A stretch of DNA of 53,473 nucleotides from Alphaproteobacteria bacterium (GTDB lineage: Bacteria > Pseudomonadota > Alphaproteobacteria > Rs-D84), in NCBI GenBank assembly GCA_017554665.1, contig JAFZHX010000038.1, forward strand, positions 1 through 53,473, read 5' to 3'. The first letter of the stretch is position 1. Every line of letters starts with the position of its first letter. Shown piece after piece: positions 549 through 52,805 of this stretch. The notes beneath the pieces are model-generated. The model saw nothing but the letters and a program-made list of their open reading frames with translations. It did not search any database and was not told the DNA's origin. The translations under genes were made by a program, and so were the position numbers.

Positions 549-1409
549 ATGAAAGCACGACTATTATTTTTATCACTAATTATAACGGCCTATCCTGTAT
601 TATCAGATGCCGCGTCCAGTTGTTCACGCGCAAATCTCACAAAATGTTTAGATTCTGCCTGTGCGATTGGTATCTCTTCCAACCCGTCTGCGCGCTGTCA
701 ATACTGTGGTTCGACCAGTGCTGGCACACCTCCTAAAAACGTTATGAAAGCAATATCAGCCGGCGCATCTGCTAAATACAACATATCTGACAAAGATTTA
801 AAAAACGCTCCCAGCGATCCTGGCGAACGTTATGTGTGGGCAACAAAACAATGTATCGCCAAGGTTACAGGCTGCACACCTGACGATGTAACAGACACAT
901 ATGACAAGCTTATTGAACAGTCTTGTACAGCTGCTGGTGTTTCCGCAAAAATGGCAAAGTTGCAAGAAAAAGCAAAAAAGACCCGCACAAAATCCGACTG
1001 CGAATCGGAAATCACAGCTTGTTTAATAGAAGACAAGGCTTGCAGCTCTGATTATAGAAAATGCGAAGCGGATGCAAGCTTTAACAATTTCTTCTCGGCC
1101 TGTGGCGCCCAAGCTGCTGGTTGCGACAACTTTATATCAGAAATACGCGATGAATTAATCGCCGCTCGCGATAGCGCAATTAAGAACGCCGACAGCATAC
1201 TGGCAAAAATCGTTGCTTCATATCAGAACACGCGCGAAAACAAGCTAACCGAAACACTTAACGGTTGCCAAGACAACAAAAAATTCGACACCTGCGTAGA
1301 AACAGTATGTCAAAATAACATGCCAGACAAGTGCAACAGTCAGACAGAAAAAATCTCAGCTGCTCTGTTATGTAAATTCCACAAAACAGCTTGCGCTACT
1401 CTGGAATAA
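549..1409 (+). CDS. Secreted cysteine-rich protein A (286 aa), first gene of a 4-gene operon
   Basis: Signal peptide MKARLLFLSLIITAYPVLSDA. I counted about 20 Cys by eye. Motifs present are KCLDSAC and ACLIEDKACSSDYRKC, which are shared with the paralogs at 1434, 44903 and 47930. Confidence 0.85.
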   Translation: MKARLLFLSLIITAYPVLSDAASSCSRANLTKCLDSACAIGISSNPSARCQYCGSTSAGTPPKNVMKAISAGASAKYNISDKDLKNAPSDPGERYVWATKQCIAKVTGCTPDDVTDTYDKLIEQSCTAAGVSAKMAKLQEKAKKTRTKSDCESEITACLIEDKACSSDYRKCEADASFNNFFSACGAQAAGCDNFISEIRDELIAARDSAIKNADSILAKIVASYQNTRENKLTETLNGCQDNKKFDTCVETVCQNNMPDKCNSQTEKISAALLCKFHKTACATLE

Positions 1410-1433
1410 CGAAACAAAGGTAAAAACAAACAA

Positions 1434-3209
1434 ATGTCAAACGCATCAACAATTTTTAAAAGCAAATTCCTAACATCTATGTTTGGATGCCTGATTGCGT
1501 TATGCACATTATCGGTTTCACTAACAACAGCAAGAGCAGAAGATTATGACATCGCAATAAAGTCTTCTCAATTTGACGAAATATTAGGCGATTCAAACGA
1601 AGACACAACAACTGCAAGCGACAGCGCGCTTGCCGAAAAGATACGCAAACAGCGCGCCGCACTAAATGCCCAATCTGCCAAAGAAGCATCTACAAACAAG
1701 GCAAAATCAAGTGCTGCATCTGGCAAAAACGATTGCGACCAAAAATTACGCGCATGTATGAAGTCAAAATGTGGCGAAGATTACTCTAAATGTTCTGGCG
1801 ACACCGACACAACATGGGGCGACAAAATGGATACATGCCGTCGCGACACAACATGTACAGGTGAAGAATACAGACTATTCACAGCTGAAATCAAAGCCGA
1901 TCGCGACATGAATTCGAAATTATCATCATATACATCTATCATAGATTGCGGTGACAAATACAACGATTGCATAATAAAGGAATGCGGTCAAACATTTACA
2001 AAATGCCTCGGCAAATCAGCAGGCGACAAAGTTGTTCAAAAATGTTCAAAAATCGCCAACCAATGCAAAGAACAAGACAGCGGCCTTGCCTCACGCGCGA
2101 TGGAGGTATTTGCCAACCTGCGCCAAGAAGCAGAAAAATTAATCATACGCGATGAAAAGCGCTTATATGAATTACGCGACAAAATGCGCAACACATGCGA
2201 CCGTTTGGGTGCATTGTTTGACGAACGAACACTTGATTGTGTCTATAGTGTTGAATTATACGCAGGCGAAGACAACACCCTGCTTTCCTCCAAGAAAACA
2301 TATGCAGGTGGCACCTTTAATTGCCACCAAGACTGGTTCGGTGTTGATGTAACCACATTTAAAGAAAACGCATTCCGTCTAACTAAATCTCAAACATCCG
2401 CATCATCTGCAGCTTTGGGTGCAGGTGTTGGCGTTGGCGTTGGCGCATTAACATCTGGCGCACTTGATCGCGCCATAGACAGATCCAAATCTGAACGTGC
2501 ATTAGGCCAAGAACTGTGCGAATCAACTGGCGGCAAGTGGCAAAAAGCAATAAATAAATGTAAATGCGAAAGCACAAAGTCATTTGACGAAGAAACAGGT
2601 TGCCAAACAGACGACAAAAAAACAGAAAAAGAAGAAAATAAAAAATCGCGCGACAAGCAGAAAGAAGATAAAGCTAACGATAAAAACGCAAAGAAAGAAC
2701 TATGCGAACAAGCCGGCAAATGGGTTGGCGCTGTATGTTACTGCAACGATAAAACACATTCTTTTGACGATGTAAATGGTTGCACCGAAAACGCAAACAA
2801 GAAAAAGAGAGCTGACAACAAAGCAGAAAGACAAGAACAAAACGAATTAAACAAACTCAAAAAAAACAGCCAAGCTGAACAAGAGGCGCGTGACAAAAAA
2901 CTGTGCGAACTTAACGGCAAAGGAAAATGGAAGAACGGCACTTGCAAATGCACAACAGAAGGCGAAACTTACGACAAAGGCTCTGGCATTTGCACATCCG
3001 CACACAACACAGAACGTAAAGAAAACACAAAAGAAGATCAAGCTTCTATTGACAGAAAAAAACAATTATGTGATACATATAACGGCAAATGGACAGGCAA
3101 TACATGCGACTGTGGCGTTGGCAAAGACTGGGATGACAAGCTTAATATGTGCAAAAATAAATTTGCTGACATGAAAATAGAAGCGCCTGAAATAAAATTA
3201 TCACTATAA
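1434..3209 (+). CDS. Secreted cysteine-rich modular protein B (591 aa)
   Basis: It starts 24 nt after gene A. It has a signal/anchor sequence ending ARA|ED and the motifs ACMKSKCGEDYSKC and DCIIKECGQTFTKC. A glycine-zipper-like segment ALGAGVGVGVGALTSGAL follows. The C-terminus has four 4-Cys Trp-containing modules separated by K/E-rich linkers. Confidence 0.85.
   Translation: MSNASTIFKSKFLTSMFGCLIALCTLSVSLTTARAEDYDIAIKSSQFDEILGDSNEDTTTASDSALAEKIRKQRAALNAQSAKEASTNKAKSSAASGKNDCDQKLRACMKSKCGEDYSKCSGDTDTTWGDKMDTCRRDTTCTGEEYRLFTAEIKADRDMNSKLSSYTSIIDCGDKYNDCIIKECGQTFTKCLGKSAGDKVVQKCSKIANQCKEQDSGLASRAMEVFANLRQEAEKLIIRDEKRLYELRDKMRNTCDRLGALFDERTLDCVYSVELYAGEDNTLLSSKKTYAGGTFNCHQDWFGVDVTTFKENAFRLTKSQTSASSAALGAGVGVGVGALTSGALDRAIDRSKSERALGQELCESTGGKWQKAINKCKCESTKSFDEETGCQTDDKKTEKEENKKSRDKQKEDKANDKNAKKELCEQAGKWVGAVCYCNDKTHSFDDVNGCTENANKKKRADNKAERQEQNELNKLKKNSQAEQEARDKKLCELNGKGKWKNGTCKCTTEGETYDKGSGICTSAHNTERKENTKEDQASIDRKKQLCDTYNGKWTGNTCDCGVGKDWDDKLNMCKNKFADMKIEAPEIKLSL
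2511..3165 (+). repeat. Four copies of a roughly 30-aa 4-Cys module (C-x6-8-W-x4-6-C-x-C-x8-11-C) with charged linkers, coding
   Basis: The four copies are LCESTGGKWQKAINKCKCESTKSFDEETGC, LCEQAGKWVGAVCYCNDKTHSFDDVNGC, LCELNGKGKWKNGTCKCTTEGETYDKGSGIC and LCDTYNGKWTGNTCDCGVGKDWDDKLNMC. Confidence 0.85.
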
Positions 3210-3262
3210 CTGTCTAAGTAAAAATAGCTTATACACATTTCAAAACACCGCACAATAAGCGC

Positions 3263-3291
3263 TTGCACAAACATCAAAAAAATGCTAAAAT
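3263..3291 (+). promoter_or_regulatory. Possible internal promoter upstream of gene C
   Basis: TTGCAC (3263-3268), a 17-nt spacer with TGC, then TAAAAT (3286-3291). It sits in the 108-nt gap before the GTG start at 3318, which is preceded by AGAGAGA. Confidence 0.4.
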
Positions 3292-3317
3292 CATCTATAA
3301 TAGAGAGAAACTAAATC

Positions 3318-5192
3318 GTGTATCGTTTTTTGAATATTTTTATCGCATTAACATTATTTGCCCTGCCCGCATTCGGCGCTGCATATGCTACTACCTCTAC
3401 AAAAAAAGAAGAACCAGCAAAATCTGAAAATCAAGAATTTATATTCAAAGTCTCTGGTAAATTCATCGGTTACACAGGCTTGGATCCATCGGGGCTTAGT
3501 GTAAAAATCATTTCCCCAAAAAATTGTGTATTTATAGCACACAGGCAACAAATAATGAATCAGCTACCAGGTGCCTTAATTAACGACAGTATCTCATGCC
3601 CTACTGGTACAGCCAGTATTACACTGGAATTCAACATAGACAATAAAGGTAATGTCACTCACAAATACCAGATAAACAAAGCCAGCAAAATGGCCACTAT
3701 CAAGCTGTCCAAAACTAAAAAGAATTATAAGTTATCGGACATTGTATTAGAACCACTAACAGCTAGCTCGAAAGCACTGGAAGCAGCAAAAGCAAACAAA
3801 CCATCAGCGAACAACGCAAAATCAGCAACAACTACTGTCGGTCAAAAACCAAACAGCACAGTAAAACAAGAACAAACAACTAAAGAAAAATCAGGATCAG
3901 ACAAGACAGCAGAAACAGTTGTTCGCAACAATGAAATAGCAGATACAACACTTTTGTTAAATCCTGACGATACTTCTCCTTTCTCTGCTAACAGTGATGC
4001 CGATAATAACAAAGACGAAGACAAAGACACAAAGGTAGCACCTGCTCCTCAGGAAAAACAATCAACAGCTTCAACTGGTGGATATGAAGAAACTGATGCA
4101 GGAACCAAAGCAACATTAGAAACAAACGGTTTAAAAAAGTTTTGCTCGGATGAAGGTTATATAACAACAGACTCTTCTTCTGTCTATGGTATAGTAAAAG
4201 CAAATTGTAAAAAAGATACAAAAAGCGAAATAACATTTGTTTGCTACAAGTACAAAGCCGTCGCAATACCAAAACAAGCAATTAGCAAACACTTTGCAAA
4301 CTATTGTTTTAAAAAAGAAACAAATTCTGTAAAGTTTGAAACAGCAAATCGACCAAGCACTCATAGCAAAGGGAAAAAATGTCCAAATGTTACACCAGCT
4401 TGGAAAAAACAAAACAACGCTAATGCCGGCGCATGCGACCCACAAACTGGCGAACTATATATAACAGAATGTAAAGCTGATTATGTCGGCACAACTCGCG
4501 GTATCAGCAAAGACGGATACAAGTCCTGTAATTCAACTTCAAACACAACAGGAAACAATGATAACGAATTGAAAAAATTGTGCACAAAAGGCGGTGCTGG
4601 CTCTTGGGAAAACGATAACTGTATCTGCAAAAATACAACACATTCTTTTGACTCTGAGAAAGGCTGTGTCCAAGACAACGAAAAAACAGAAGAATTAAAG
4701 AAAAAATGTACCACTCCAAACACTTGGAATGAAAAACTGAAACAGTGTGAGTGCGAAAACAAAAAACAAAAATTTGACGAAAAAGCTGGAAAATGTGTTG
4801 ATACAGACGCAGAAACAGAAACAAACAACAATGACGGATCAGAAGCATTGTGTACAAAGGACGGTGCTGGCTCTTGGGCAGACGGCAAATGCACATGCAC
4901 AGACGAAACACATTCTTTCGACTCCAAGAAAGGCTGTATCCTGGACAAAAAGAAAGCAAAAGCTAAAAAAACAGAAGACTTAAAAAACAAGTGCAAAGCT
5001 CCAAACACTTGGAACGAAAAACTGAAAAAATGTAAGTGCGAAAACAAAAAACAAGAATTTGACGAAGAAGCTGGAACTTGCGTTGATGTAGCTGCTGATT
5101 ATAAAAACGCAGTTTCAAAACTGGAACAGCTTAAACAACAGCTGGATACAAAATTGGAAGAATTAAATAAAGAAGATGGCGAAAACGAATAA
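3318..5192 (+). CDS. Secreted cysteine-rich modular protein C (624 aa, GTG start)
   Basis: Signal peptide MYRFLNIFIALTLFALPAFGAAYA. It has a Ser/Thr/Lys/Asp-rich spacer, a Cys-rich middle region, and four copies of the 4-Cys W module also seen in gene B. The tail is coiled-coil-like (LEQLKQQLDTKLEELNKE). Confidence 0.85.
   Translation: MYRFLNIFIALTLFALPAFGAAYATTSTKKEEPAKSENQEFIFKVSGKFIGYTGLDPSGLSVKIISPKNCVFIAHRQQIMNQLPGALINDSISCPTGTASITLEFNIDNKGNVTHKYQINKASKMATIKLSKTKKNYKLSDIVLEPLTASSKALEAAKANKPSANNAKSATTTVGQKPNSTVKQEQTTKEKSGSDKTAETVVRNNEIADTTLLLNPDDTSPFSANSDADNNKDEDKDTKVAPAPQEKQSTASTGGYEETDAGTKATLETNGLKKFCSDEGYITTDSSSVYGIVKANCKKDTKSEITFVCYKYKAVAIPKQAISKHFANYCFKKETNSVKFETANRPSTHSKGKKCPNVTPAWKKQNNANAGACDPQTGELYITECKADYVGTTRGISKDGYKSCNSTSNTTGNNDNELKKLCTKGGAGSWENDNCICKNTTHSFDSEKGCVQDNEKTEELKKKCTTPNTWNEKLKQCECENKKQKFDEKAGKCVDTDAETETNNNDGSEALCTKDGAGSWADGKCTCTDETHSFDSKKGCILDKKKAKAKKTEDLKNKCKAPNTWNEKLKKCKCENKKQEFDEEAGTCVDVAADYKNAVSKLEQLKQQLDTKLEELNKEDGENE
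4575..5090 (+). repeat. Internal tandem duplication of about 270-285 bp, each unit encoding two 4-Cys modules
   Basis: ggtgctggctcttggg occurs at 4593 and 4863, and ccaaacacttggaa at 4716 and 5001. At protein level, LCTKGGAGSWENDNCICKNTTHSFDSEKGC plus KCTTPNTWNEKLKQCECENKKQKFDEKAGKC is duplicated as LCTKDGAGSWADGKCTCTDETHSFDSKKGC plus KCKAPNTWNEKLKKCKCENKKQEFDEEAGTC. Confidence 0.9.
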
Positions 5193-5204
5193 AAAGCATA
5201 ATAA

Positions 5205-7097
5205 ATGAAAAAACTGTTTATAACATCTTTACTAACAATATTAACTTTACCTGCATTTGCAGAAAATGCGGCTAACCCTTTTGATAATGCTACAACAAAA
5301 GAAGAAGCTTGGACAATCTTTGAAGATAAAGCTTCGGCTATTTTAAAAGAATCTAAAGCAAAGTTGAAAAATTCTGAATATTCCAAATTGGAAAAACAGT
5401 ATAAAAATATGCTTGAAGACAAAAACGAAAAAACAAGCAAAAAAGATAAAAAGAAAAAAGACGAAGAACAAAATAAAAAGAAGTTATCGCCAGAAGAACA
5501 AGAACAAAAAATCTCGGAACTGCGCGACAATGCCGAAGCCATGAAGGAAAAAGAACAGTCCTTTGAAAACAAAGCGTTGGGTGCAGCAGCTATTGGCACA
5601 ACTGGTATGGGCGCGATGGAGCTAGCATCCGGACTTGCAGAAAAAACTGCAGACGAAGATGCAGAACGTTCAATGAAGGCTTATCTTGCTACATTTACTT
5701 GCAAATATGGCGACAAACGCGTCAAAGGCGGCACAATGAATGTAGAACTGCCTGGCGGAAACGAACTGATTAACCTGTACAGCGAATATGTAACATTAGC
5801 AAATGATTTGAAAGTTCGTAAAAACGCACTGGGCATGTTGCCAGGTATTGAGTCAGAATCTATCTTGGACAAATCTACAAGTGGATTGTATGACGATGTA
5901 AATATTGGTAAAACAGGTGGCGCATATACATCTTTGGCTCGCGCACTGATGGACCCAACTGGCGAAGATGCACAAAAATGGAATGCAGAAAAACAAGCTT
6001 CTGCTGACAAGGTGAAAAAAGGCGCAACAGCTGCTGGCCTTGGCGCAATTGGTGGCTTGATTGGAAACTTGGCTATCAATGGAAAATCTCCAAAAGAACG
6101 CTCGGAAGAAATAAATAAAAAATATGAACCTTTGAAAAAAGAATTCACAGAAGTTCAAGAAGAAATAGAAGAAAAACACAAAGAAAAACTCACCAAAGAA
6201 ACTTGCGCCAAATATGACGCAGTCGGTGAAAATATCGAAAGCAGTTGCTCTTGCTCTGATGAAAACAGTTATTGGGATTCTAACAATATACAATGCACAT
6301 CTTGTGAAGAAGATCAGATTGTTAACGAAGACAAAACAAGCTGCATACCAAAACCTGGACCAAGTTGCGAATTACAACCCGGCAATTTAACAGATGAAAA
6401 TTGCGCATGTATAAACGAAGCTGAAAAAGATGAAAATAATGCTTGTGTTTGTAATTTAACTGGCACATTTAATGCAAACTCATGCGAATGCAACGAACAT
6501 TCAACTAAGAATGGTAACGCATGTGCATGCGATTCGAATTACAAGCCTGACCCAAAAGCTCCTACTACTTGCATTCCAGAAGTAGCCGAAGTAGTAGCTG
6601 CTGAAGAACCAATACAAACATTCTCTTTCCCTTCGGATACATTCTTTGATGTTGGCAAAGCTACACTAAAAGACGATGCAGGTAGCCTGCTTAAAAAAAT
6701 AACAGATGTGATAAAACAAAAATATCCAGATAAAGCTGCTGAAATACTTGCATCATCATGCTTTACAATCAACGGATATGCAGACAGAACCGGCAATTAC
6801 AAAAAAAATCAAACCTTATCTGAAAGCCGCGCTCACTCGGTTGCAAAAGCATTGGTTACAGCTTCTGGTGGCAAGATAACAAACAATAGCTATGTAGTAT
6901 CTGGCAAAGGCGATACAGAATGCACAAGAACAGATTATCCAAAAAAAGCAGACCTCGCAAAATGTCGTCGTGTTGACATAGTGCTAAACTCAGGTTCTTG
7001 TTCCGCCCCTGTCGCAGAATCAGGCGATGGTGCAGCCAATAAAGCAAACACAATAGAAACAGCCACAAAAGTAGTGACAGGCATAATAAAAAAATAA
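5205..7097 (+). CDS. Secreted modular protein D (630 aa): K/E-rich coiled region, glycine-zipper segments, CxC-rich module, C-terminal OmpA-type peptidoglycan-binding domain
   Basis: It starts 12 nt after gene C. Signal peptide MKKLFITSLLTILTLPAFA. Glycine-zipper-like segments are ALGAAAIGTTGMGAMELASGLA and ATAAGLGAIGGLIGNLAI. CxC motifs occur repeatedly (CSC, CAC, CVC, CEC, CAC). The C-terminus carries the OmpA_C hallmarks FFDVGKATL, INGYADRTGNYKKNQTLSESRAHSVAKAL, SGKGD and CRRVDIVL. Confidence 0.85.
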   Translation: MKKLFITSLLTILTLPAFAENAANPFDNATTKEEAWTIFEDKASAILKESKAKLKNSEYSKLEKQYKNMLEDKNEKTSKKDKKKKDEEQNKKKLSPEEQEQKISELRDNAEAMKEKEQSFENKALGAAAIGTTGMGAMELASGLAEKTADEDAERSMKAYLATFTCKYGDKRVKGGTMNVELPGGNELINLYSEYVTLANDLKVRKNALGMLPGIESESILDKSTSGLYDDVNIGKTGGAYTSLARALMDPTGEDAQKWNAEKQASADKVKKGATAAGLGAIGGLIGNLAINGKSPKERSEEINKKYEPLKKEFTEVQEEIEEKHKEKLTKETCAKYDAVGENIESSCSCSDENSYWDSNNIQCTSCEEDQIVNEDKTSCIPKPGPSCELQPGNLTDENCACINEAEKDENNACVCNLTGTFNANSCECNEHSTKNGNACACDSNYKPDPKAPTTCIPEVAEVVAAEEPIQTFSFPSDTFFDVGKATLKDDAGSLLKKITDVIKQKYPDKAAEILASSCFTINGYADRTGNYKKNQTLSESRAHSVAKALVTASGGKITNNSYVVSGKGDTECTRTDYPKKADLAKCRRVDIVLNSGSCSAPVAESGDGAANKANTIETATKVVTGIIKK

Positions 7098-15376: not shown

Positions 15377-15407
15377 CAAATCCCCCAAACGGGGGATTTA
15401 TTTTTTT
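15377..15407. terminator. Bidirectional rho-independent terminator
   Basis: aaatccccc-aaac-gggggatttattttttt, located between convergent genes. Confidence 0.8.
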
Positions 15408-18678: not shown

Positions 18679-18845
18679 GTGTTCTCCTTTTTTGACCCCA
18701 CATCATTTACTGGGTTATGCTTTTATTCGTAGCACATATATTTACTTTATCAACAAAAACTTTTTTTATTTTTTTGAAAATTCAAAGAAACCGTGAACAT
18801 CAACAAAACCAAAGGTTAAACAAAAAATTATTAAAAATAATTTGT

Positions 18846-18877
18846 AAAAAAAATGTCCCGTTTGGGACATTTTTTTA
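18846..18877 (-). terminator. Rho-independent terminator after the giant autotransporter
   Basis: aaaaaaatgtccc-gttt-gggacattttttt. Confidence 0.75.
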
Positions 18878-24004: not shown

Positions 24005-24042
24005 TTTTTCTTCTTTTATTCCATTCCTAAATATGGTTATAA

Positions 24043-25377
<1,335 letters not shown>

Positions 25378-39495: not shown

Positions 39496-39497
<2 letters not shown>
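39468..39497. terminator. Rho-independent terminator
   Basis: aaaaatccccc-gtt-gggggatttttttt. Confidence 0.8.
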
Positions 39498-41727
<2,230 letters not shown>

Positions 41728-41852: not shown

Positions 41853-42758
41853 ATGAGCAAAATAATTAACTTTTTCAAAAACCACAAGCACTTTGTAAAC
41901 TGGACAGTGTGTTACACAGCAGCCGTATGGTCTTTATTGTATTTTATGTTTGGTTTCAACATATTCAAAGGACATCACTGGCACATATTATCACACGCTC
42001 ACCTCCACGGTTTCATAGGTTTTGTCTTTGGAGCATTACTACTCTCTATTCTCCCGATATACCTATCAACAAGCACGATTATCATACGCACAAAAAAACC
42101 ATTAATTACGATTCCGCTACCTAAACTAGGCAAAAAATCAGAAGAACCAAAAAAACAAGAAGACTCCAAAGAAAATAAAGAAGACGAAAAAGCAGAGGAT
42201 TTTTCCCACATACCTTTGGAAATACGTCCTGCATTTGCGCGTGCAAAAAACCATCCCTTGGACATACAAATAAAATCTCCAACTTCTATCGCTTCAAATT
42301 CTGAAGCAACAGAACAAGAAACCGAGCTACCTATCCCTACAGATTTCGACATTTCTTTCTCGCCCGAAGAAATAGAAGACATCCAAGAAGAAAGCATGCC
42401 TATATTCAAAGACTTTAACTTTGAAGACAGCACAACAGACACACAAACAAACAGCATTACCGAACACCTAGACAAAGCCGGCATCAAATACTCTACTGTT
42501 AACGGCCTTATTGTTACAGACACTCAGGCAATAGCAGTCCACAACGATTCGGATTTTTGGGTTACAGACAATGAAAATTGGTTTGCGACCGGCAAAAGCA
42601 TTCCATCTCCTATTAATTCTGTAAAAGAAATTGCTGCACAGTTCAAAGTAACCCCTGTATTATACTTGGCGGAACAAAACATTATGGACATTGAAACTTT
42701 GATTCCACAGTGGGAATCCGAAGGCATAAAAGTCATCCAAGACCTATCTGAATTATAA
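41853..42758 (+). CDS. Hypothetical membrane protein (301 aa)
   Basis: It has two N-terminal TM helices, an acidic K/E/D-rich linker and a C-terminal globular region. I recognise no family. Confidence 0.65.
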   Translation: MSKIINFFKNHKHFVNWTVCYTAAVWSLLYFMFGFNIFKGHHWHILSHAHLHGFIGFVFGALLLSILPIYLSTSTIIIRTKKPLITIPLPKLGKKSEEPKKQEDSKENKEDEKAEDFSHIPLEIRPAFARAKNHPLDIQIKSPTSIASNSEATEQETELPIPTDFDISFSPEEIEDIQEESMPIFKDFNFEDSTTDTQTNSITEHLDKAGIKYSTVNGLIVTDTQAIAVHNDSDFWVTDNENWFATGKSIPSPINSVKEIAAQFKVTPVLYLAEQNIMDIETLIPQWESEGIKVIQDLSEL

Positions 42759-43765: not shown

Positions 43766-44617
43766 TTATTTATCTGCTTTGTCAGCCAATTTGCTGCGGC
43801 GTTCTGCACGAGCAGCTGTTGTTTTTGATTTAACTTTGGCTTCTTTTTCTTTGATTTCATCTTCCAGTTCATCGGCTGCATCTGCCATATTTTCAGATGC
43901 CATTTTTTTACCTGCGACACCGCCCAAGCGTTTTTCGATACCAGACAAGATAGCATCTACGAACAAGTCGCAATACAACTGAGTTGCGCGAGCAGCATCA
44001 TCATTACCTGGAACTGGGTAATCAACCATTTCTGGATTTGCATTTGTATCGCAGATAGCAATTGTTGGGATATCCAAATTTTTTGCTTCGCGAACTGCAT
44101 TCATTTCACGTGGAACGTCAATAATAACGATAGCCTGTGGAGTTCCATGCATTTCCATAATACCGCCGAAAATACCGCGTAGTTTTTCAACTTCTTTGGT
44201 CATTACACCGACTTCTTTTTTTGTCAGGCCTAATTTTTCAGCGTTTTCGACATCAGCTTCCATTTTTTTCAAGCGACGGATAGATTGAGAAACTGTAGTC
44301 CAGTTAGTCAACATACCACCCAACCAGCGGTTATTTACATAGAATTGACCGCAACGTTCAGCAGCATCTTTTACGATATCTTTTGCTTGATGTTTAGTAG
44401 CAACGAACAGAACCTTACCACCAGCAGCTGCGATAGCTTCCAATGCGACCAAAGAACGGTGCAACAATGGTGCAGTTTTATTCAAATTGATAATATGAAT
44501 TTTATCTTTAACGCCATAAACATATGGAGTCATCAAAGGGTTCCAGCGACGAGTATGGTGACCGAAATGAACACCAGCTTCCATCAACTGTTTCATAGTA
44601 AATGTTGGCAATGCCAT
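43766..44617 (-). CDS. rpsB: 30S ribosomal protein S2 with a K/E/A-rich C-terminal tail
   Basis: MALPTFTMKQLMEAGVHFGHHTRRWNP. The start at 44617 follows AAGGAT; the ORF track extends to 44731. Confidence 0.95.
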   Translation of the reverse strand: MALPTFTMKQLMEAGVHFGHHTRRWNPLMTPYVYGVKDKIHIINLNKTAPLLHRSLVALEAIAAAGGKVLFVATKHQAKDIVKDAAERCGQFYVNNRWLGGMLTNWTTVSQSIRRLKKMEADVENAEKLGLTKKEVGVMTKEVEKLRGIFGGIMEMHGTPQAIVIIDVPREMNAVREAKNLDIPTIAICDTNANPEMVDYPVPGNDDAARATQLYCDLFVDAILSGIEKRLGGVAGKKMASENMADAADELEDEIKEKEAKVKSKTTAARAERRSKLADKADK

Positions 44618-44862
44618 GATTTTATCCTTTTTTGTGTTGTTATCCTCGCCACCTGCGGTCAGACCAGAAATACATCTGGACACAAATTTTGCAGAGTGGT
44701 TGTGTTCTTCGCACCAAGGTGCGTGCCCCAATAATACCCCAGCAACATTAAAAAATCAAGTAAAAAGAATAAAATTTATTCCACTATTGTCGGGACAGTC
44801 ACCACACAAATCAAGCCCCCAAGACAAACAAGACAAGTTTTATTTTATTCCGTACCACAGCG

Positions 44863-44889
44863 AAAAAACCCGCGGAATAACCGCGGGTT
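44863..44889 (-). terminator. Rho-independent terminator after gene F
   Basis: The minus strand reads aacccgcgg-ttatt-ccgcgggtt followed by tttttt. Confidence 0.75.
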
Positions 44890-44902: not shown

Positions 44903-47900
44903 TTACATTTGTAATGTTGTACATTGCGGACTCGAAGACTCATCCCAAGTTTCACAATATTGCTCACCAAACATAGGAGCTTTGGTTTTCTTACAATGAG
45001 AATAAACAACGCATTTTTCACATGTTAAATCAGTTGGATTAAACACAGTTGTAATATCTTCTTTGTAATTCCAATATTCAACTTTGTATTCACCACGAAG
45101 TTTTTGCGTTTCTGCGTACTCAAAAGCTTCTGAAGCAGCCGAATTTGCAACAGCAATACCTGTCGCCAAACCAGCCGACACAGCTGCACCAACAGAACCA
45201 ATAACAGCAGCAGAAATTCCTGCAGCAACCACAGAAGCTGAAGTAGCTGCCGTAGCCGCTGCCGCTGTAGCGAATGAAGCTGCAACGGAAGCCGCAAAAC
45301 CACCGGTAGTAGCAGCGAATGAAGCTGTAGCAGCGGCGGTAGCAGCAGCGGCGGCTGTAGAAGTAGCAGCAGCCTGTGCAGCACCCAGCCCACCAACAGA
45401 AGCTAACGACGCAGCACCACCAACCCCAAACGTACAAACAGTAACCGCAGTAATCGCCAATGCAAGTATAATACCCAAAAATATTCCACCACCAACACTA
45501 GCCGGAGGGGTTGTAGATTTTGGCATAGCAGAACCTTCTGCCAAATTCACACAAGACTGACGTGCCAATTCACGATGTCTATCTTTAAAGTTTTCACCCG
45601 CTATTTCCGCCTGACGTTCTGAAATTTTTATATAATCTTGCAAGGAACGTTCTGTCAAGCTATCGTATTTGGCATAATAATTACTCTTTGCTTTTTGCAA
45701 TAATTTTGCTGCCATAATTGTACGGGTCTGCTTGGTCAGATTTGGGAAACGCGCAACCTTTTCAGTATTAAGACCTGAAACCTTGCGTCCTTCCATACAT
45801 GCTGCAACCGTAACATCAGATTCAATAGAATCCATAACGCTATCCAATGACTTTTTAAACACACTAAATTCATTGTTCAAACGTTCTTTCTGCTTGTCTG
45901 TCATAAATAGTTTACGATCTTCCAGCTTTTGCATATAATCATCCAAGCCTTCAAAATTACCATCTACACCAACAGAAATAGATTCCCAATAAATAGGCAC
46001 ATCAATCAACACAGCATAAGGTGTTACAGGCCCCAATTCACCAGACACTGAATTTTCCACACGTCCCAAATCTTTATCTGGAATCATAGACTGTTCTGCG
46101 AAACAATGATCTGTTAACACAAAACCATCTTGATACAATTGGTATTCGCAAATTTTATATTCCAACGAAGTTGTACCAAACGTATTCAAATCTATCAGAC
46201 TTGCGCAATCCATATTTTCGCCACAAACGCGTTTAGTTGCAGTTTCCAATGCAGCTTCACAAGTTGCCAACATTTCGTTATCGATATTCAAGATAATACC
46301 TTGAACCATCTTATTCAAATTATCATAAACTTCATTAGATGTCAGTTTTTTATCATGAACACTTTGACAACCAGTCAGTTTATCATATGGGCACATTCTG
46401 ATAATTTGTTCTGTACTTAGACCAACACACTGAGAATAATCAGCACCACATCTATCTTCCGAACTTAAACATTCTTTTAATTCATTAGTACAAGCATCAA
46501 CTTTCATCGCAGCCAGTCTTGCCAACACATAATCCCAAATGCTAGACTCACGCGCTTTTACAGGGTCCGAGCTATTGATACCACAAGCATCCAACTGCAC
46601 CTTACAAACATTCAGCATTGTTTCTGGTCTGGACAAGCACATATCATAAGAACCATCTGGATCATTTGGATCCATATGATCTTTACATGCATTTCTAAAG
46701 CAGTCAGAAACATTACCGATACAATCTTTTCTCATATTATCTTCGGCAATCGTTTCAGCTAATTTTAATTGCGGAGCCACATCTTTTACAAAAACATCAA
46801 AGACCTGATCTGCTACCTTGGTACACTGTTTAAAAACTGCTTCACACAAAGGCTTTTTTGCAACCAAAATATCATAAGTAGAAGCAGAAATTTCTATATT
46901 AGAAACAGCCCCCTGAATTTTATAAGTAGTTTGTTTTTTATCCTTCTCTCTGCTATTAGTAGCACTAATGGCAGAAACAGAGGCGCACTTTGAAAAATCA
47001 TTACCACAACCTGCTGTTGTTTGCATACATTCTTTAAATGCTGTTGTACATTGCCCCAAATCAAACTTATTTGCATTTTTCGCATTATCAAAAGCAACTG
47101 TACGCAAAGCACCTTCGACTTGACGTTTTTTTGCCTTTGCATCACTAAGTTGTTTTTTCAAAGCATTATTATATGCAGCACAGTCAGAGTTAATTGCCCC
47201 GTCATACACCGAAGACATAAAAGACAATTTATCGCCACATTGTGTAATTCTTTCTGCACAAACTTCATGTGCCTTTCTCTTTAACTGAGCACCAATTTCA
47301 CCATCGGACCAAGCCTGTTTGATAGATATTCTATTTGCACTAACTTCGCTGGTAAAGTTGACTTCCGTTTCACCCGACAACGCGGCTTCAATTGTTTTTT
47401 CACCCAAATTAGCAATTTTAAATGCTTCTTGATCAATCTCTTCAATTTCTGCAAGCAATTTATCAAATGAACGGTATTTATCACTGCACACACAGCGACC
47501 ACCGCTAAAGTTTTCAATTACACAGAAAGAGTCCATACAACCGTTATAAATCTGCTTACAATCATCACTAACAACTACATTTTCAGCAGCACCCGCAACT
47601 TTGGTTCCTGTACTCACAACCTTTTGAGTAGAGGCAGCACGCGCTGAAACCGTTGGTACCTTTGAAGCAGCAGGCACACCACCACCACGCACAGCTGTTG
47701 TACGACCACCAGTTTTACCAGCTGCAGGAGCAGCTGCCTGTGACGCAGTCTTAGCGTTTGTTGCCGCACGTGCAGACACCCCCCCTTTTTTTGGCGCAGC
47801 TGATACAGCAGCATTACCCCTTTGCACATTTCCCCTGCGTGCAGGTGCGCAAAATGCACCATTAATTACGGTGCATAATGCTAAAGTTACGATTGATATA

Positions 47901-47914
47901 TTTTTTCCACACAT
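44903..47914 (-). CDS. Secreted cysteine-rich protein F (1003 aa) with a long Ala/Gly-rich hydrophobic region
   Basis: It has a signal peptide and a basic A/R/G/P/T/K tract (VSARAATNAKTA..AAGKTGGRTT). Motifs are GCMDSFC, ECMQTTAGCGNDFSKC and ECLSSEDRCGADYSQC. An Ala/Gly/Ser/Thr hydrophobic stretch of about 130 aa precedes a Cys-rich C-terminus. Confidence 0.85.
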   Translation of the reverse strand: MCGKNISIVTLALCTVINGAFCAPARRGNVQRGNAAVSAAPKKGGVSARAATNAKTASQAAAPAAGKTGGRTTAVRGGGVPAASKVPTVSARAASTQKVVSTGTKVAGAAENVVVSDDCKQIYNGCMDSFCVIENFSGGRCVCSDKYRSFDKLLAEIEEIDQEAFKIANLGEKTIEAALSGETEVNFTSEVSANRISIKQAWSDGEIGAQLKRKAHEVCAERITQCGDKLSFMSSVYDGAINSDCAAYNNALKKQLSDAKAKKRQVEGALRTVAFDNAKNANKFDLGQCTTAFKECMQTTAGCGNDFSKCASVSAISATNSREKDKKQTTYKIQGAVSNIEISASTYDILVAKKPLCEAVFKQCTKVADQVFDVFVKDVAPQLKLAETIAEDNMRKDCIGNVSDCFRNACKDHMDPNDPDGSYDMCLSRPETMLNVCKVQLDACGINSSDPVKARESSIWDYVLARLAAMKVDACTNELKECLSSEDRCGADYSQCVGLSTEQIIRMCPYDKLTGCQSVHDKKLTSNEVYDNLNKMVQGIILNIDNEMLATCEAALETATKRVCGENMDCASLIDLNTFGTTSLEYKICEYQLYQDGFVLTDHCFAEQSMIPDKDLGRVENSVSGELGPVTPYAVLIDVPIYWESISVGVDGNFEGLDDYMQKLEDRKLFMTDKQKERLNNEFSVFKKSLDSVMDSIESDVTVAACMEGRKVSGLNTEKVARFPNLTKQTRTIMAAKLLQKAKSNYYAKYDSLTERSLQDYIKISERQAEIAGENFKDRHRELARQSCVNLAEGSAMPKSTTPPASVGGGIFLGIILALAITAVTVCTFGVGGAASLASVGGLGAAQAAATSTAAAAATAAATASFAATTGGFAASVAASFATAAAATAATSASVVAAGISAAVIGSVGAAVSAGLATGIAVANSAASEAFEYAETQKLRGEYKVEYWNYKEDITTVFNPTDLTCEKCVVYSHCKKTKAPMFGEQYCETWDESSSPQCTTLQM

Positions 47915-47929
47915 CTTCTAAAGCTCTAA

Positions 47930-50900
47930 TTAATATTGTGTATCTGTACATTCTTCTACTGGATCTTCCCATGCTTTACAATAACGAGAGTCTATCTTAC
48001 AACAGTCTTTATATCCTCTCTTATCTGTACAGTTTTGTTTACGGACACACTTTCTACATACCAAAGTCGATGTATTAAATGTAATAGTTGTTGTTTCTTT
48101 AAAGTAAGGTTCATCGTTCGAGCTGGTTGCAGAGTATTCACCCTGAATATCACCACCCGAACCATCTATAGAGATCGCTTGCCCCAAGCAAGAAGCTGCC
48201 AAAACAGGAATCTTGTCTTTTAGTTCCTGAGCCTTGCGAACTTCAACAATACGTTGTGCCAACTTTACATTCTCTTCCGAAATCTTGGTTTGCAGTTCTT
48301 TATACTTCTTATCATAGTTCGCTTGTGCTTTACGCAAAGCAGTCTGTGCGATAATTGTTTTCAAAGAATCTGTCAACCCTGGGAAGCGACCTTCTTCCAA
48401 TTCTTCGCCATCAGTGTTTTCAGAAGTAATCTTCTTTCCCTTATCCAATCCCTGTACTTTGCGACCAGTCATACAGTACTGAACCTGTGGGTCATTTTCA
48501 ATTGATTGAATAGTAGCCATAATCGCATTTTTCAACGACCCCAAGTCAGAAGCAATCGCATCAGCTTTATCGCTAGAGATTGCTGTACCCACTGCCGAAG
48601 ACAAACCTGTCGCACACAAATGTTTTTGCGTTTTGTTATTATTGGCAACATCCAAAGTAATTTCACAGTTCGCATCTGGTTGTTCCAACGAGAAAGTAAT
48701 CTTATTCCATTTTATGGTACCATCAATAACACCCGAGAACATAGGAGGACCATCATAAGTAACAACCCTGTGCGCTTTTGATCTGTTCTCCATAGCTTTC
48801 GCCATCATAAGTTTAACTTCTCCACTCAAAGTTTCTCCATTATCAATCAAATCAGCTGCTTCTTTTCTATATTTGTCTGCCAGGTCTAGATAACTCTGAG
48901 AAGCATCATCTAATGTTGCTTCACCTAATAAAACCTTGTCAGAAATCAATGAAATATCCTGCACACAAGCGGAATAGTTACCACTTCCATCATCCTGACA
49001 AATCTTGTATTCCAAAGCATGCTGACCAACACCATTTGGCAAAGACATCGATTCGCAAGAATCTGTAGAACCACACGTCTTAATCATAGCTTTGTTCACA
49101 GCTTCCTGACACTGTTCAATCATTTTGTTATCAATATTCAATATCAACCCCTGAGCAACAGAATATATATATTCTTCTTGCTCTGTTACGGTGTCTCCAT
49201 ATGAAGAAGAATAACATGCTGTCAACTTATCGCGATGACACATCCCCATAATTGTATATGTATCCAAACCAATACAGTTAGTATAATCTTTACCACAAAC
49301 ATCCTCTGACTGTATACAATCTCTAACTTCTGTTGAACATGCGTCAACTCTCATAGCATTAAGTCTTGCTACAATAAATCCCCAAATCGGACTTGCCATA
49401 GCAGCAGTTTTGCTCTCTGCATTAATAGCACAGTTATTCAAAGGAACCTTACAAGCGAACAACATTGTTTCTGGTCTGGACAAACACATGTCATAAGAGC
49501 CGTCTGGGTCATTTGGATCCATGTTATCTTTACATGCTTTTTTAAAGCAGTCAGAAACATTACCAATACAGCTTTGTCTTGATTTGTCTTCTGCAATTAA
49601 TTCAGCAGATTTTAATTGCGGAGCAACTTCACGCATAAACACATCCCAAACTTGATCTGCAACCTTGGTACATTGTTTCAACACAGTTTCACACAAAGGT
49701 TTTTTCGCCATCAAAGCATCATAAGTAGATGCAGAAACTTCTATACTAGAAACCGCACCCCTAATCTGATAGTTTTTGGCTGCTTTACTTGTACTACGTA
49801 CTGTACTTGTTGAATCCAACGCAGATATAGTTGCACAACCCGAAAAATCTGTACCACAACCTGCAGTTGTCTGCATACATTCTTTAAATGCGATTGTACA
49901 CTGACCTAAGTCAAACTTGTTTGCATTCTGTTCTTTTTCAAATGCAGTTTCACGTAAAGCCTTTTCTGCAGCTTGCAACTTCTGAGCACTTTGCGTCTTT
50001 TTCTGCTTCATAACATTTTCATATGCTGTACAGTCTGACTTAATTCTTTGAACATACATCATCTGCAACATATTTATATCTTTTTCACATTCAGGCATCT
50101 GAGCTTTACACAATTTAGCAGCAGCTTTCTGCAACTCATCACCCTGCTTGCCATCAATTGGATCTACATAAGTTTCAACTTCTGCAAATGCATCTTCTTC
50201 ATCATCTTCAAAACTCATAGGTGTAGTCCACAAGCTCAAATCCAAAGTCTTTTTTTTCTTGGTTTCTTCCTTGACTGCTGGCTTATTGCTATCCTTAATC
50301 GAATTAACGACTTCATTTACCTTAGCAATCGCAGCATCCGCATCTTCACCCATTTCCAGCTTTTCAACACCCAAAGTTGCCATTTGATACGACAAATCAT
50401 CTAATTTCTCAATTTCTAACAAAATAGCATCTAATTCTACATTCCTATCACTACAAAGACATCTACCACCACTTTCATTGTCTAGCATACAGAAAGAGTC
50501 CATACAACCTTCATACTTGTTACGACATTCTTCACTAACAACCGTGTTTTGAGTTGCTTCTTGCACCTTGGTTCCAGTACTAATAACACTTTGCTTTTTA
50601 GCAGCACGCGCAGAAACAGCAGGCGCACCAGTCTTTGGCGCAGCTTTGGTATTAGCCGCAGGCGCATTAGGAGTTGTACCACTGCGCGCAGATGTCGTAC
50701 GACCACCTGTCTTACCAGCAGCAGGAGCACCAGCCTTTGGCGCTGTCTTGGCATTAGTCGCAGCACGCGCGGACACCGGCTTAGAAGCAGTAGTTTTCGC
50801 ATTCGAACCAGCCGAAGTCGCAGGCGCAGCACCACCCCTACCAGCAGGACGACCAGCACGAGCAGCAGCCGAAACCCCAGTCGTATCAAGCGTTGCATAC

Positions 50901-50935
50901 AATAAACCAAGTGTTAAAAATAGTATTTTTTTCAT
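47930..50935 (-). CDS. Secreted cysteine-rich protein G (1001 aa), tandem paralog of F
   Basis: It lies 15 nt upstream of F. It has the same basic N-terminal tract plus GCMDSFC, ECMQTTAGCGTDFSGC and DCIQSEDVCGKDYTNC. The block DPNDPDGSYDMCLSRPETML is identical to that in F. Confidence 0.85.
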   Translation of the reverse strand: MKKILFLTLGLLYATLDTTGVSAAARAGRPAGRGGAAPATSAGSNAKTTASKPVSARAATNAKTAPKAGAPAAGKTGGRTTSARSGTTPNAPAANTKAAPKTGAPAVSARAAKKQSVISTGTKVQEATQNTVVSEECRNKYEGCMDSFCMLDNESGGRCLCSDRNVELDAILLEIEKLDDLSYQMATLGVEKLEMGEDADAAIAKVNEVVNSIKDSNKPAVKEETKKKKTLDLSLWTTPMSFEDDEEDAFAEVETYVDPIDGKQGDELQKAAAKLCKAQMPECEKDINMLQMMYVQRIKSDCTAYENVMKQKKTQSAQKLQAAEKALRETAFEKEQNANKFDLGQCTIAFKECMQTTAGCGTDFSGCATISALDSTSTVRSTSKAAKNYQIRGAVSSIEVSASTYDALMAKKPLCETVLKQCTKVADQVWDVFMREVAPQLKSAELIAEDKSRQSCIGNVSDCFKKACKDNMDPNDPDGSYDMCLSRPETMLFACKVPLNNCAINAESKTAAMASPIWGFIVARLNAMRVDACSTEVRDCIQSEDVCGKDYTNCIGLDTYTIMGMCHRDKLTACYSSSYGDTVTEQEEYIYSVAQGLILNIDNKMIEQCQEAVNKAMIKTCGSTDSCESMSLPNGVGQHALEYKICQDDGSGNYSACVQDISLISDKVLLGEATLDDASQSYLDLADKYRKEAADLIDNGETLSGEVKLMMAKAMENRSKAHRVVTYDGPPMFSGVIDGTIKWNKITFSLEQPDANCEITLDVANNNKTQKHLCATGLSSAVGTAISSDKADAIASDLGSLKNAIMATIQSIENDPQVQYCMTGRKVQGLDKGKKITSENTDGEELEEGRFPGLTDSLKTIIAQTALRKAQANYDKKYKELQTKISEENVKLAQRIVEVRKAQELKDKIPVLAASCLGQAISIDGSGGDIQGEYSATSSNDEPYFKETTTITFNTSTLVCRKCVRKQNCTDKRGYKDCCKIDSRYCKAWEDPVEECTDTQY

Positions 50936-51025
50936 ATTTTATCCCTTCCATTTTTTTCCATTTTATCATAGAAAAAAAAATATTAAAAGTACTTTTTATG
51001 TTTTTATGAAAAATTTAATGAATTT

Positions 51026-51056
51026 AAAAAAAAGTCCTCTAACCAGAGGACTTTTT
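51026..51056 (-). terminator. rplQ terminator
   Basis: agtcctct-aacc-agaggact flanked by A- and T-runs. Confidence 0.75.
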
Positions 51057-51076: not shown

Positions 51077-51520
51077 TTATTCTGCTTGTTCAGTAGCTGT
51101 TGTTTCAGCAACTGGTTCTGCTTCTACAACTGGTGCAGATGCTTTCTTTGCGTTCACATCACGATCAACCAATTCGATGATAGCCATTGGTGCAGCATCA
51201 CCATAACGGAAACCAGCTTTCAAAACGCGTGTATAACCACCTGGACGGTTAGCATAGCGTTTACCCAAAACATCAAACAACTTTTTAACAGTTGCTGCAG
51301 AAGAATTACCCAATTCAGATGCTGTCAAACGACGATTTGCAACTGTATCAACCTTTGCGCGAGTAATCAGTTTTTCAACGACACTGCGTAAATCTTTTGC
51401 TTTTGGCAAAGTTGTTTTAATCTGTTCTTTTTCAATCAAGTTTTTTGCCAGACCAATAAACAAGGCCTTGCGTGCATTTGTGTCGCGATTAAAAGTACGA
51501 CCTGCTTTCATATGTCTCAT
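51077..51520 (-). CDS. rplQ: 50S ribosomal protein L17
   Basis: [21 protein letters not shown]...[18 protein letters not shown]. Confidence 0.95.
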
Positions 51521-51776: not shown

Positions 51777-52805
51777 TTATTTATACGGGTCTTCGTATTT
51801 CTTTGCCAATTCAGCAATGTTTTCTGGTGGCCAACCTGGAACTTCCATACCCAAGCCCAGCCCCATAGCTTCTAATTGAACTTTGATTTCATTCAAAGAC
51901 TTGCGGCCAAAATTTGGTGTCTTCAACATATCAGCTTCTGTCTTTTGAACCAATTCGCCCAACCAGTTAATCTTGTCGTTCTTCAAGCAGTTATTTGCAC
52001 GAACTGACAATTCCAATTCATCAACATGCTTTAACAATTTTGGATCAAATGGCAATGCATCTTTTGCAGCTTCTTCATCGTTCACAGAACCAATCTGTGC
52101 TGGATCTTCAAAGTTAATAAAGACAACCAATTGATCTGTCAAAATACGTGCTGCAAATGCAATTGCATCTTCTGGAGATACAGCACCGTTTGTTTTAACT
52201 GTCAATTCCAATTTGTCATAGTCTGTTGACTGACCAACACGTGTTTCAGAAACAGCGCTCGCTACATTCAGAATTGGAGAGAAAATAGAATCAACCGGCA
52301 TTACACCCAATGGCAAGCCATCCGCATGTTGAGATGCAGGAACATAGCCACGACCTGTTGCCAATGTGATTTCCATATCCAAAGATGCACCTTTGTCCAA
52401 TGTGCAAATTTCTGCATCTTTATTCATAACTTCGACACCACCAGAAGTTTCAATCATACCTGCTGTAACAACTGCTGGGCCTTTAACTTTCAAATAAGCT
52501 TTGTGTTGACCTTCGGTCAAGGCTTTGAAATATACACCCTTTAAGTTCAAAATGATATCTGTAACATCTTCACGAACACCAGAGATGCTAGAAAATTCGT
52601 GCTGTACACCATCAATTTTGATATAGATAGGAGCGCAACCTTGTAAAGAAGACAACAATACACGACGCAACGCGGTACCCAATGTCAAACCGAAACCTTT
52701 TTCCAATGGTTCAGCGATTAAAGTTGCAACGTTTGGATTATGTTCATCAACTTTGACAGTCAATTTTTTTGGCTTAATCAAAGTCATCCAGTTCTTTTCA
52801 ATCAT
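51777..52805 (-). CDS. rpoA: DNA-directed RNA polymerase subunit alpha
   Basis: [20 protein letters not shown] and the C-terminal domain motif [13 protein letters not shown] are present. Confidence 0.96.

Follow-up and report, generated by a model that had tools for sequence, protein, structure and literature searches.

F and G, a tandem gene pair from a new family of probably disulfide-rich envelope proteins in gut Alphaproteobacteria of the order Rs-D84

The Braun lipoprotein Lpp and domain II of TolA are helical and span the periplasm of diderm bacteria as tethers or spacers. In the mitochondrial intermembrane space, an oxidizing extracytoplasmic compartment, the twin-CX9C and CX3C proteins (CHCH fold) use paired disulfides to staple antiparallel helices. 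Surface antigen families driven by gene conversion include msp2/p44 of Anaplasma, vlsE of Borrelia and pilE/pilS of Neisseria. In this work we analyze two adjacent genes, G and F, on a 53,473-nt contig from an alphaproteobacterium of the GTDB order Rs-D84 (JAFZHX010000038.1, assembly GCA_017554665.1; the whole contig is hereafter called the window), for which the nearest functional analogy is the complex of chlamydial OmcB (60-kDa cysteine-rich protein, CRP; Pfam Chlam_OMP6 / DUF11). G and F belong to a new, unnamed, lineage-specific family of reduced-genome gut Alphaproteobacteria (Candidatus Enterousia / Rs-D84) with an apparently new fold, whose members are probably disulfide-rich structural proteins of the bacterial envelope. 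We give an even chance to the more specific reading in which the two proteins form a Sec-exported, disulfide-stapled helical envelope pair, one partner anchored and the other free.

The likeness to OmcB lies in a small-genome bacterium dependent on a host or partner, in the order of parts, where a Sec signal peptide leads into a basic N-terminal tract and this into a large body rich in conserved cysteines, in cysteine-rich envelope proteins and an OmpA-type protein encoded alongside, and in a body under stabilizing selection (PMC2229832). Membership in the OmcB family nonetheless fails on every point that could be tested, because neither protein matches the Chlam_OMP6 / DUF11 profile (Pfam at E<=1; none in NCBIfam) and the fold is predicted to be alpha-helical rather than composed of beta-sandwich repeats. 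F and G are also about twice the size of OmcB, F and the presumed ancestral forms carry a helical membrane hairpin, and the organism, a gut anaerobe, has genes for peptidoglycan and rod shape; moreover, the OmcB complex is disulfide-cross-linked, whereas cross-linking of F and G would be a prediction from their conserved cysteine pattern. With Lpp and TolA the pair shares a predicted elongated, helix-rich form, a core-genome position and, if the role proposed below holds, one end held in a membrane and the other suited to contact with the wall or outer membrane. Unlike them, it is far larger, cysteine-rich and unrelated in sequence, its anchor is a C-terminal hairpin instead of an N-terminal lipid or transmembrane (TM) helix, and no Tol-Pal-type partners were identified. 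As in CHCH proteins, the cysteines stand at a fixed helix spacing, but that spacing is CX6C (in CX6CX6CX6C modules), many modules are strung along 1000 aa, the compartment is bacterial and there is no homology. Linked copies of the family exchange tracts by non-reciprocal recombination like those of msp2, vlsE and pilS, but F and G are both full-length and expressed-looking, each with a start codon and a signal peptide, the window holds no silent-cassette array, the exchanged tracts homogenize the core, and the ratio of nonsynonymous to synonymous substitution rates (dN/dS) is low.

The pair is laid out as follows:

47930..50935, minus strand: G, the upstream paralog, 1001 aa from an ATG start
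47915..47929, minus strand: 15-nt spacer between G and F, without a terminator
44903..47914, minus strand: F, the downstream paralog, 1003 aa from an ATG start

Each protein contains 42 cysteines, and the two align at 41% identity across 875 aa (BLASTP, E = 0) with a common layout of signal peptide, basic SARAA-repeat tract, cysteine-rich helical core and small C-terminal beta domain. Strings present in the pair include VSARAATNAKTA, AAGKTGGRTT, FDLGQCT.AFKECMQTTAGCG.DFS.CA and (N/H)MDPNDPDGSYDMCLSRPETML. An earlier description made from the DNA letters alone (the sequence-only reading) had proposed tandem paralogs of the same architecture, placed head to tail with a 15-nt gap, neither of them a pseudogene; the BLASTP identity, the common anatomy and the coordinates of the open reading frames (ORFs) bear this out, and both ORFs are intact, with neither a frameshift nor the loss of a conserved cysteine. 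At the DNA level the cores align at 72.6% identity over 729 nt, identity rises to 80-91% in the best 75-nt windows, and exact runs extend to 22 nt at most. A block of about 85% DNA identity that had been pointed out does exist, but the coordinates given for it were ~8 nt out of register: positions 46660-46730 pair with ~49508-49578. Upstream of the pair lie rpoA (51777-52805) and rplQ (51077-51520), followed by G and F, with rpsB and tsf downstream, and the window contains no further family copies or silent cassettes besides F and G.

Protein searches with G and F returned 916 and 845 clusters at 90% identity, respectively, all of them unnamed or 'hypothetical', with hundreds of family members matched over their full length at E = 0 and closest database identities of 60% for G and 63% for F. 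The family comprises 905 representatives at 50% identity (E<=1e-3) and is present in 279 species-level genomes. It is confined to metagenome-assembled genomes (MAGs) from gut and rumen, titled Candidatus Enterousia, uncultured Alphaproteobacteria or Rickettsiales, plus two obviously mis-binned names. The latter are the labels 'Bacteroides fragilis' / 'Muribaculaceae bacterium' on locus L020 (CAVGNU010000007.1) and protein P0180, where an alphaproteobacterial rpoA-rplQ-family locus is found and binning contamination in public MAGs is the probable source. Candidatus Enterousia is placed in Rs-D84, an order of fermentative bacteria with genomes under ~1 Mb that lack respiratory chains and most biosynthesis, retain RodA, MreB and MrdA, and have been proposed to depend obligately on a host or partner (PMC12306168).

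No described family accounts for these proteins. Scans of Pfam (E<=1), NCBIfam and PADLOC yielded no relevant family for F or G, PHROGs gave matches to unknown-function families at E>=3e-4 alone, over short helical stretches that we treated as noise, and searches of PDB sequences with single sequences and a profile returned no match. Foldseek, run on the G model, found nothing at E<=0.001 in PDB (best E 1.6) or BFVD (0.16). No autotransporter or type V secretion system (T5SS) beta-barrel translocator was matched in F or G, whereas another ORF of the window (15406-18678) matches PF03797 at 1e-29. The homology searches place the pair in no known toxin or adhesin class; membership in such a class would have overturned the sequence-only reading. 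A literature search for Rs-D84 together with 'cysteine-rich' found no papers, and the Enterousia papers cover metabolism only.

The genomic position of the family was assessed in 79 fetched loci, and counts of neighbouring genes refer to 81 loci. The family gene nearly always follows rpoA-rplQ (as it also does in L080), and next to it comes either rpsB-tsf or, in the opposite orientation, the gene for a conserved membrane protein of 300 aa; on a 914-kb contig it closes the cluster S8-L6-L18-S5-L30-L15-SecY-S13-S11-RpoA-L17. A tandem pair occupies about one third of the loci and a single copy about two thirds. Nine loci (L012, L014, L024, L030, L037, L041, L047, L049 and L053) hold extra shorter or partial family-related cysteine-rich ORFs of 365-784 aa, lying <=10 kb from the main gene and in some cases on the opposite strand, of which the window has none.

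Transcription signals in the window delimit the pair:

51029..51056, minus strand: intrinsic-terminator-like hairpin and T-run after rplQ, parting the ribosomal operon from the G-F unit
50960..50968 (50968->50960), minus strand: extended -10 element TGATAAAAT ahead of G, promoter-like by sequence match only
50943-50949, minus strand: GGAAGGG, resembling a ribosome-binding site, 7 nt upstream of the G ATG
44867..44889, minus strand: intrinsic-terminator-like GC-rich hairpin and T-run just past the F stop codon

No terminator-like hairpin scoring as strongly as these flanking two was found between G and F. Co-transcription of G and F as a bicistron is plausible on this basis, given a promoter-like element upstream, terminators on either side and none comparably strong between the genes; of the bicistron proposed earlier, the extended -10 element is exactly where it had been placed and terminators occur at the outer ends only, and the joint transcript itself keeps the rank of a plausible prediction. 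Most tandem loci of relatives likewise have spacers of ~3-14 nt or apparent overlaps (the exceptions are L011, L020, L035 and L049). Beyond the F terminator, the rpsB ORF as called (43766-44731, minus strand) begins at a TTG and carries ~37 extra N-terminal residues; its true start is probably the ATG at ~44620 (MALPTFTMKQ...), in which case the ~245 nt that separate rpsB from the F terminator would be non-coding.

Four segments frame the cysteine-rich body of the two proteins:

50534..50866, minus strand: N-terminal polycationic tract of G, ~aa 24-134, predicted disordered, with four [ST/A]AR[AS][AG] motifs
~47567-47845, minus strand: N-terminal polycationic tract of F, with two [ST/A]AR[AS][AG] motifs
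47930..48148, minus strand: C-terminal cysteine-containing beta domain of G, aa 930-1001, with a predicted local distance difference test score (pLDDT) of ~85-90
44903-45106, minus strand: C-terminal beta domain of F, equivalent to that of G

Across the family the N-terminal tract spans a median of ~117 aa ahead of the first cysteine module, consists to 78% of A/G/T/S/P/K/R, carries median charges of +13/-2 and contains 2-5 copies (median 2) of [ST]ARAA(T), a motif that within the window occurs in F and G only. AlphaFold2 (AF2) models, with mean pLDDT values of 68 (G) and 66 (F) and predicted TM-scores (pTM) of 0.43 (G) and 0.39 (F), predict the tract to be disordered in both proteins, place long helices in the G body at residues 281-338, 426-471, 583-621 and 856-917 together with small beta elements, and resolve with good confidence a C-terminal beta domain of ~65 aa in both. 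This domain ('WNYKE..C..KC..C..YC..W..C.D.QF'), the signal peptide and the [ST]ARAA tract are all present in F and G. Export through Sec and residence in the envelope or periplasm would follow from such an architecture. For F, a lipoprotein anchor was considered on account of the cysteine in its signal peptide (...INGAFCAP) and rejected, there being no [GAS] directly before the cysteine and no lipobox; the G signal peptide ends ...TTGVSA/AA and by inspection does not fit the lipobox L-[AS]-[GA]-C.

More than 130 columns are invariant in an alignment of 84 family sequences, and 38 cysteine columns are conserved at 83-100% among 100 full-length proteins from the 79 loci and the window, with every invariant cysteine column represented in both F and G. 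Many cysteines recur at intervals of seven residues; two CX6CX6CX6C modules ('CGxDYxxC') repeat each other within the protein and weakly match modules in two other cysteine-rich ORFs of the window. One pair, Cys963/Cys996 of G, co-varies perfectly, being gained and lost together. The even number of conserved cysteine columns, their heptad spacing and this co-varying pair lead us to infer disulfide stapling of helices, with ~19 staples per protein. The most conserved motif of the family, 'ACKDxMDPNDPDGSYDMCL[ST]RPETML' (G aa 468-492, window ~49460-49534; F aa 410-434), forms an aspartate-rich loop between cysteines that resembles a cation-binding loop and fits neither the canonical EF-hand nor DxDxDG.

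The two copies differ in their putative membrane anchor:

45140..45511, minus strand: hydrophobic region of F, aa 802-925, uncharged and rich in Ala/Gly/Thr/Ser

This region runs from a first TM-like helix (802-838; AF2 helix 809-828) through low-complexity Ala/Thr/Ser/Gly sequence to a second hydrophobic stretch (~887-923). At the same place G has polar inserts longer than those of F and no hydrophobic region, as the sequence-only reading had observed in contrasting an Ala/Gly-rich hydrophobic part of F with a non-hydrophobic insert in G. The contrast extends to relatives: in tandem loci first copies are devoid of a long uncharged stretch and second copies have 30-142 uncharged residues at ~aa 780-880, so that G is of the anchorless 'first-copy' type and F of the 'second-copy' type. 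Most single copies possess a compact hairpin of ~45-55 aa, 'LPKSPxPPKxAFGK-(about 20 hydrophobic)-PFTGG-(about 20 hydrophobic)-GNAGSG', and the hydrophobic region of F is homologous to this 'FGK..PFTGG..GNAGSG' two-helix hairpin. Such a hairpin would put both of its flanks on the same side of the membrane and may therefore tether F to the inner membrane while the two ends of the protein stay in the periplasm, an orientation consistent with an anchorless exported G that bears the same C-terminal domain.

Our preferred reading combines these features. F and G would be the products of an old tandem duplication of a conserved, lineage-specific exported gene, each with a cleavable signal peptide, a disordered polycationic SARAA tail of ~100 aa and a mostly alpha-helical body of ~700 aa in which the 38 conserved cysteines could form the ~19 staples. 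The ancestral single-copy form would have carried the hairpin just ahead of the C-terminal domain, F having kept it and G having lost it. Expressed as a unit from their own promoter past the rpoA-rplQ operon, anchored F and free G might serve as stoichiometric partners in a disulfide-stabilized scaffold or tether of the envelope, in which other lineage-specific cysteine-rich envelope proteins, including one with an OmpA domain, may take part, and the basic tail could contact a polyanionic layer such as peptidoglycan, lipopolysaccharide (LPS) or phospholipid. Gene conversion would keep the cysteine-rich cores alike while selection would keep the C-terminal thirds distinct. We thus infer a periplasmic location, disulfides, a heteromeric assembly and a structural role for the pair.

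Several observations weigh against this reading. Rs-D84 is described as strictly fermentative and without a respiratory chain (PMC12306168), which makes it puzzling how each molecule would acquire ~19 disulfides, and a tblastn search for E. coli DsbA/DsbB found no match in the window and 81 loci, which with ~1.4 Mb round one locus are too small a sample. Localization is argued from the signal peptide and hydrophobicity heuristics, and the confidence of the AF2 models is at best moderate (pTM 0.39-0.43). The hairpin is absent from about 20 single-copy relatives, so that anchoring is not obligatory and is dispensable in some lineages, and the two hydrophobic stretches of F are joined by a loop without charged residues, an unusual composition for one that would lie in the cytoplasm. 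Finally, the basic tail could equally serve adhesion at the cell surface.

This last point leads to the main alternative, in which F and G would be conserved, non-variable surface adhesins of the OmcB kind, with the polycationic N-terminal tail binding polyanions of a host or partner (sulfated mucins or glycosaminoglycans (GAGs), or a microbial envelope) and the cysteine-rich body acting as a rigid stalk. The conserved tract of ~100 aa directly after the signal peptide, with its strong excess of positive charge, suits such a role, and there is a precedent in OmcB, where the N-terminal basic domain mediates heparan-sulfate binding and the cysteine-rich remainder is structural (PMC2229832). A partner- or host-dependent lifestyle is predicted for Rs-D84, and an autotransporter with repeats of the chlamydial polymorphic membrane protein (PMP) type is encoded nearby, consistent with an elaborate surface. 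Yet neither Pfam nor NCBIfam detects a beta-barrel, T5SS or type I secretion system (T1SS) signal in F or G, the alpha-helical hairpin of F and the ancestral form is typical of inner-membrane anchoring, and the OmcB families are unmatched, the predicted fold being helical and not beta. On balance we consider the adhesin reading unlikely, and the three that follow less likely than it.

It is improbable, in our estimation, that F and G are periplasmic metal-binding or redox-buffering proteins whose thiols scavenge metals or oxidants in an anaerobe and form no structural disulfides. An anaerobic fermenter without a respiratory chain, CxxC and closely spaced cysteine patterns, and the lack of a Dsb gene in the same small and uninformative sample would agree with this idea. 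The cysteines themselves speak otherwise: the conserved columns are even in number and spaced in heptads on predicted helices, as expected for helix-helix staples, one pair is gained and lost together, F and G contain no His/Cys metal-site or CxxCH motifs, and some 1000 aa with long helices better suit a structural protein.

The sequence-only reading had likened the pair to diversifying surface proteins, with conserved cysteine scaffolds, variable inserts and recombination between the copies, and antigenic variation generated in this way has some evidence on its side: the paralogs lie in tandem and combine conserved blocks with inserts that have diverged, further partial copies occur near the gene in some relatives, and conversion can be demonstrated in relatives and is likely to have happened in the window as well. 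Tracts of near identity between tandem copies extend over 1714 nt with 1 mismatch in L020 and 869 nt with 3 mismatches in L019, and L034 has 503 nt of exact identity as well as 126 nt with a single mismatch. Assembly artefact was rejected as their general source since L034 is a closed long-read chromosome (OZ007020.1); it is possible for the tracts of L019 and L020, which come from short-read MAGs. The first copy of L019 also contains an in-register tandem duplication of 54 nt (L019:9911-10018, 98% identical), which adds 18 residues in a variable region past the cysteine core. In the window, the corresponding segment is:

46610..47059, minus strand: tract of F of G type (first-copy type), F aa 286-435, with its G counterpart at ~49457-49906

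Residues 286-435 of F share 73% identity with G and with the sister clade's first copies, against only 49% with F orthologues, a relation that is reversed in the flanks, and 32 informative columns show the first-copy state (T1) in 22 cases and the second-copy state (T2) in 4. This segment probably derives from a G-to-F gene conversion, and an old one, as F-G nucleotide identity within it is only ~80%; faster change in the second copies of the sister clade is an alternative. Over the whole gene, identical residues are encoded by identical codons at a frequency of 0.63 between F and G, against an orthologue baseline of 0.52-0.58. The recombination between copies that had been suggested is thus supported both by the tracts of relatives and by the G-like segment of F.

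The outcome of this recombination is, nevertheless, the opposite of diversification. All conversion tracts of relatives fall in the cysteine-rich core (~aa 80-600), and the C-terminal third retains 45-78% identity; conversion homogenizes the conserved core and does not reshuffle variable parts. Ten close pairs of orthologues have dN/dS values of 0.05-0.23, which indicates purifying and not diversifying selection, and the only two 60-codon windows above 0.8 are ones where dN and dS are both ~0.02-0.03 and hence carry no meaning; between L001 and L032 the F-type gene (0.144) evolves ~1.8 times faster than the G-type gene (0.081). A tree of the C-terminal third unites 19 of 22 second copies in one clade, together with one contig-edge gene, and most anchorless first copies in another, which suggests that the gene was duplicated once long ago and again, more recently, in a few cases (L020, L049); a whole-length neighbour-joining tree, which it replaced, mixes the copies and is misleading about the duplication history because conversion between tandem copies homogenizes the core. 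The inserts are therefore type-specific and orthologous across species. Antigenic variation is largely refuted by the dN/dS values and by this orthology, and we judge it very improbable. Further points against it are the 38 cysteine columns and the more than 100 others that do not vary across dozens of species, the fixed place of the gene behind rplQ, as of a housekeeping gene, the predominance of single copies (~2/3 of the loci) and the lack of additional copies or silent cassettes in the window.

Least credible of all is the idea that F and G are secreted as toxins or effectors, for example as a pore-former whose Gly/Ala-rich F region inserts into target membranes, because, although that region is glycine-zipper-like and rich in small-xxx-small motifs and the absence of a known-family match keeps homology from excluding such a function, the family is present order-wide at a fixed housekeeping locus under strong purifying selection, many relatives have no hydrophobic region, and the searches brought up neither an immunity gene nor a link to a secretion system nor a toxin domain.

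Other genes of the window bear on the envelope context of the pair:

39496-41727, minus strand: cysteine-rich, Gly-rich secreted protein of 743 aa with 25 Cys; homologue within 10 kb of the family gene in 52/81 loci
41853-42758, plus strand: membrane protein of 301 aa; homologue within 10 kb in 51/81 loci
549..7097, plus strand: four consecutive cysteine-rich secreted proteins of 286, 591, 624 and 630 aa, with 3.3-6.9% Cys

The 743-aa protein has a GGNGGGGNGGNGGEGGGEGGG tract after its signal peptide and is without a Pfam match. The 301-aa protein, also without one, consists of N-terminal TM helices and an acidic linker and is a convergent neighbour in relatives; in the window, rpsB-tsf is inserted between its gene and the family gene. 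The cluster at 549-7097 stands beside the family gene in many relatives, a neighbourhood that is split in the window, and homologues of its members occur within 10 kb of the family gene in 31 (1434-3209), 27 (549-1409) and 24 (5205-7097) of the 81 loci. The last of these, the 630-aa protein, ends in an OmpA-like peptidoglycan-binding domain, and the 286- and 591-aa proteins weakly share a CX6CX4-6CX6C module with F and G; small modules such as 'LC...GKW....C.C......FD...G.C' recur in the 591- and 624-aa proteins. A diderm envelope is further indicated by a SurA-like chaperone, an SLT transglycosylase and the autotransporter (15406-18678, minus strand, 1090 aa), which has chlamydial PMP repeats (PF02415, PF03797); the 1728-aa ORF upstream of it (within 15406-24061, minus strand) has no Pfam match at all. 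A secreted protein of the choloylglycine (bile-salt) hydrolase family (35039-36118, plus strand) fits a vertebrate gut habitat. GrpE, TIM, a VirB11-like ATPase, NrdR, a CcrM-like methylase, enolase, PGK, SSB and a class-I tRNA synthetase are also encoded, and the rest of the window is that of an ordinary small chromosome.

Building on the preferred reading of an anchored and a free envelope partner, we tentatively propose a broader one, for which the chances are well short of even: Rs-D84 may possess a disulfide-stapled alpha-helical envelope skeleton with F and G as its core element and the cysteine-rich and OmpA-domain neighbours as further parts, converging on the chlamydial complex through an unrelated new fold. 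If true, a skeleton of this kind in a strict anaerobe without a respiratory chain would imply an unrecognized route of oxidative protein folding, and the concerted evolution of the tandem copies would preserve interaction surfaces.

Rs-D84 and Enterousia are widespread uncultured gut bacteria with genomes <1 Mb, which may live as epibionts, parasites or scavengers. One or two proteins of 1000 residues account for 0.3-0.6% of such a genome and are likely to be central to envelope biology or to contact with a partner, and the family could act as a signature gene for the order. The many conserved extracytoplasmic cysteines pose a puzzle in an organism that does not respire, and the pair offers a natural example of subfunctionalization, into an anchored and a free form, combined with concerted evolution of the cores and distinct C-terminal thirds.

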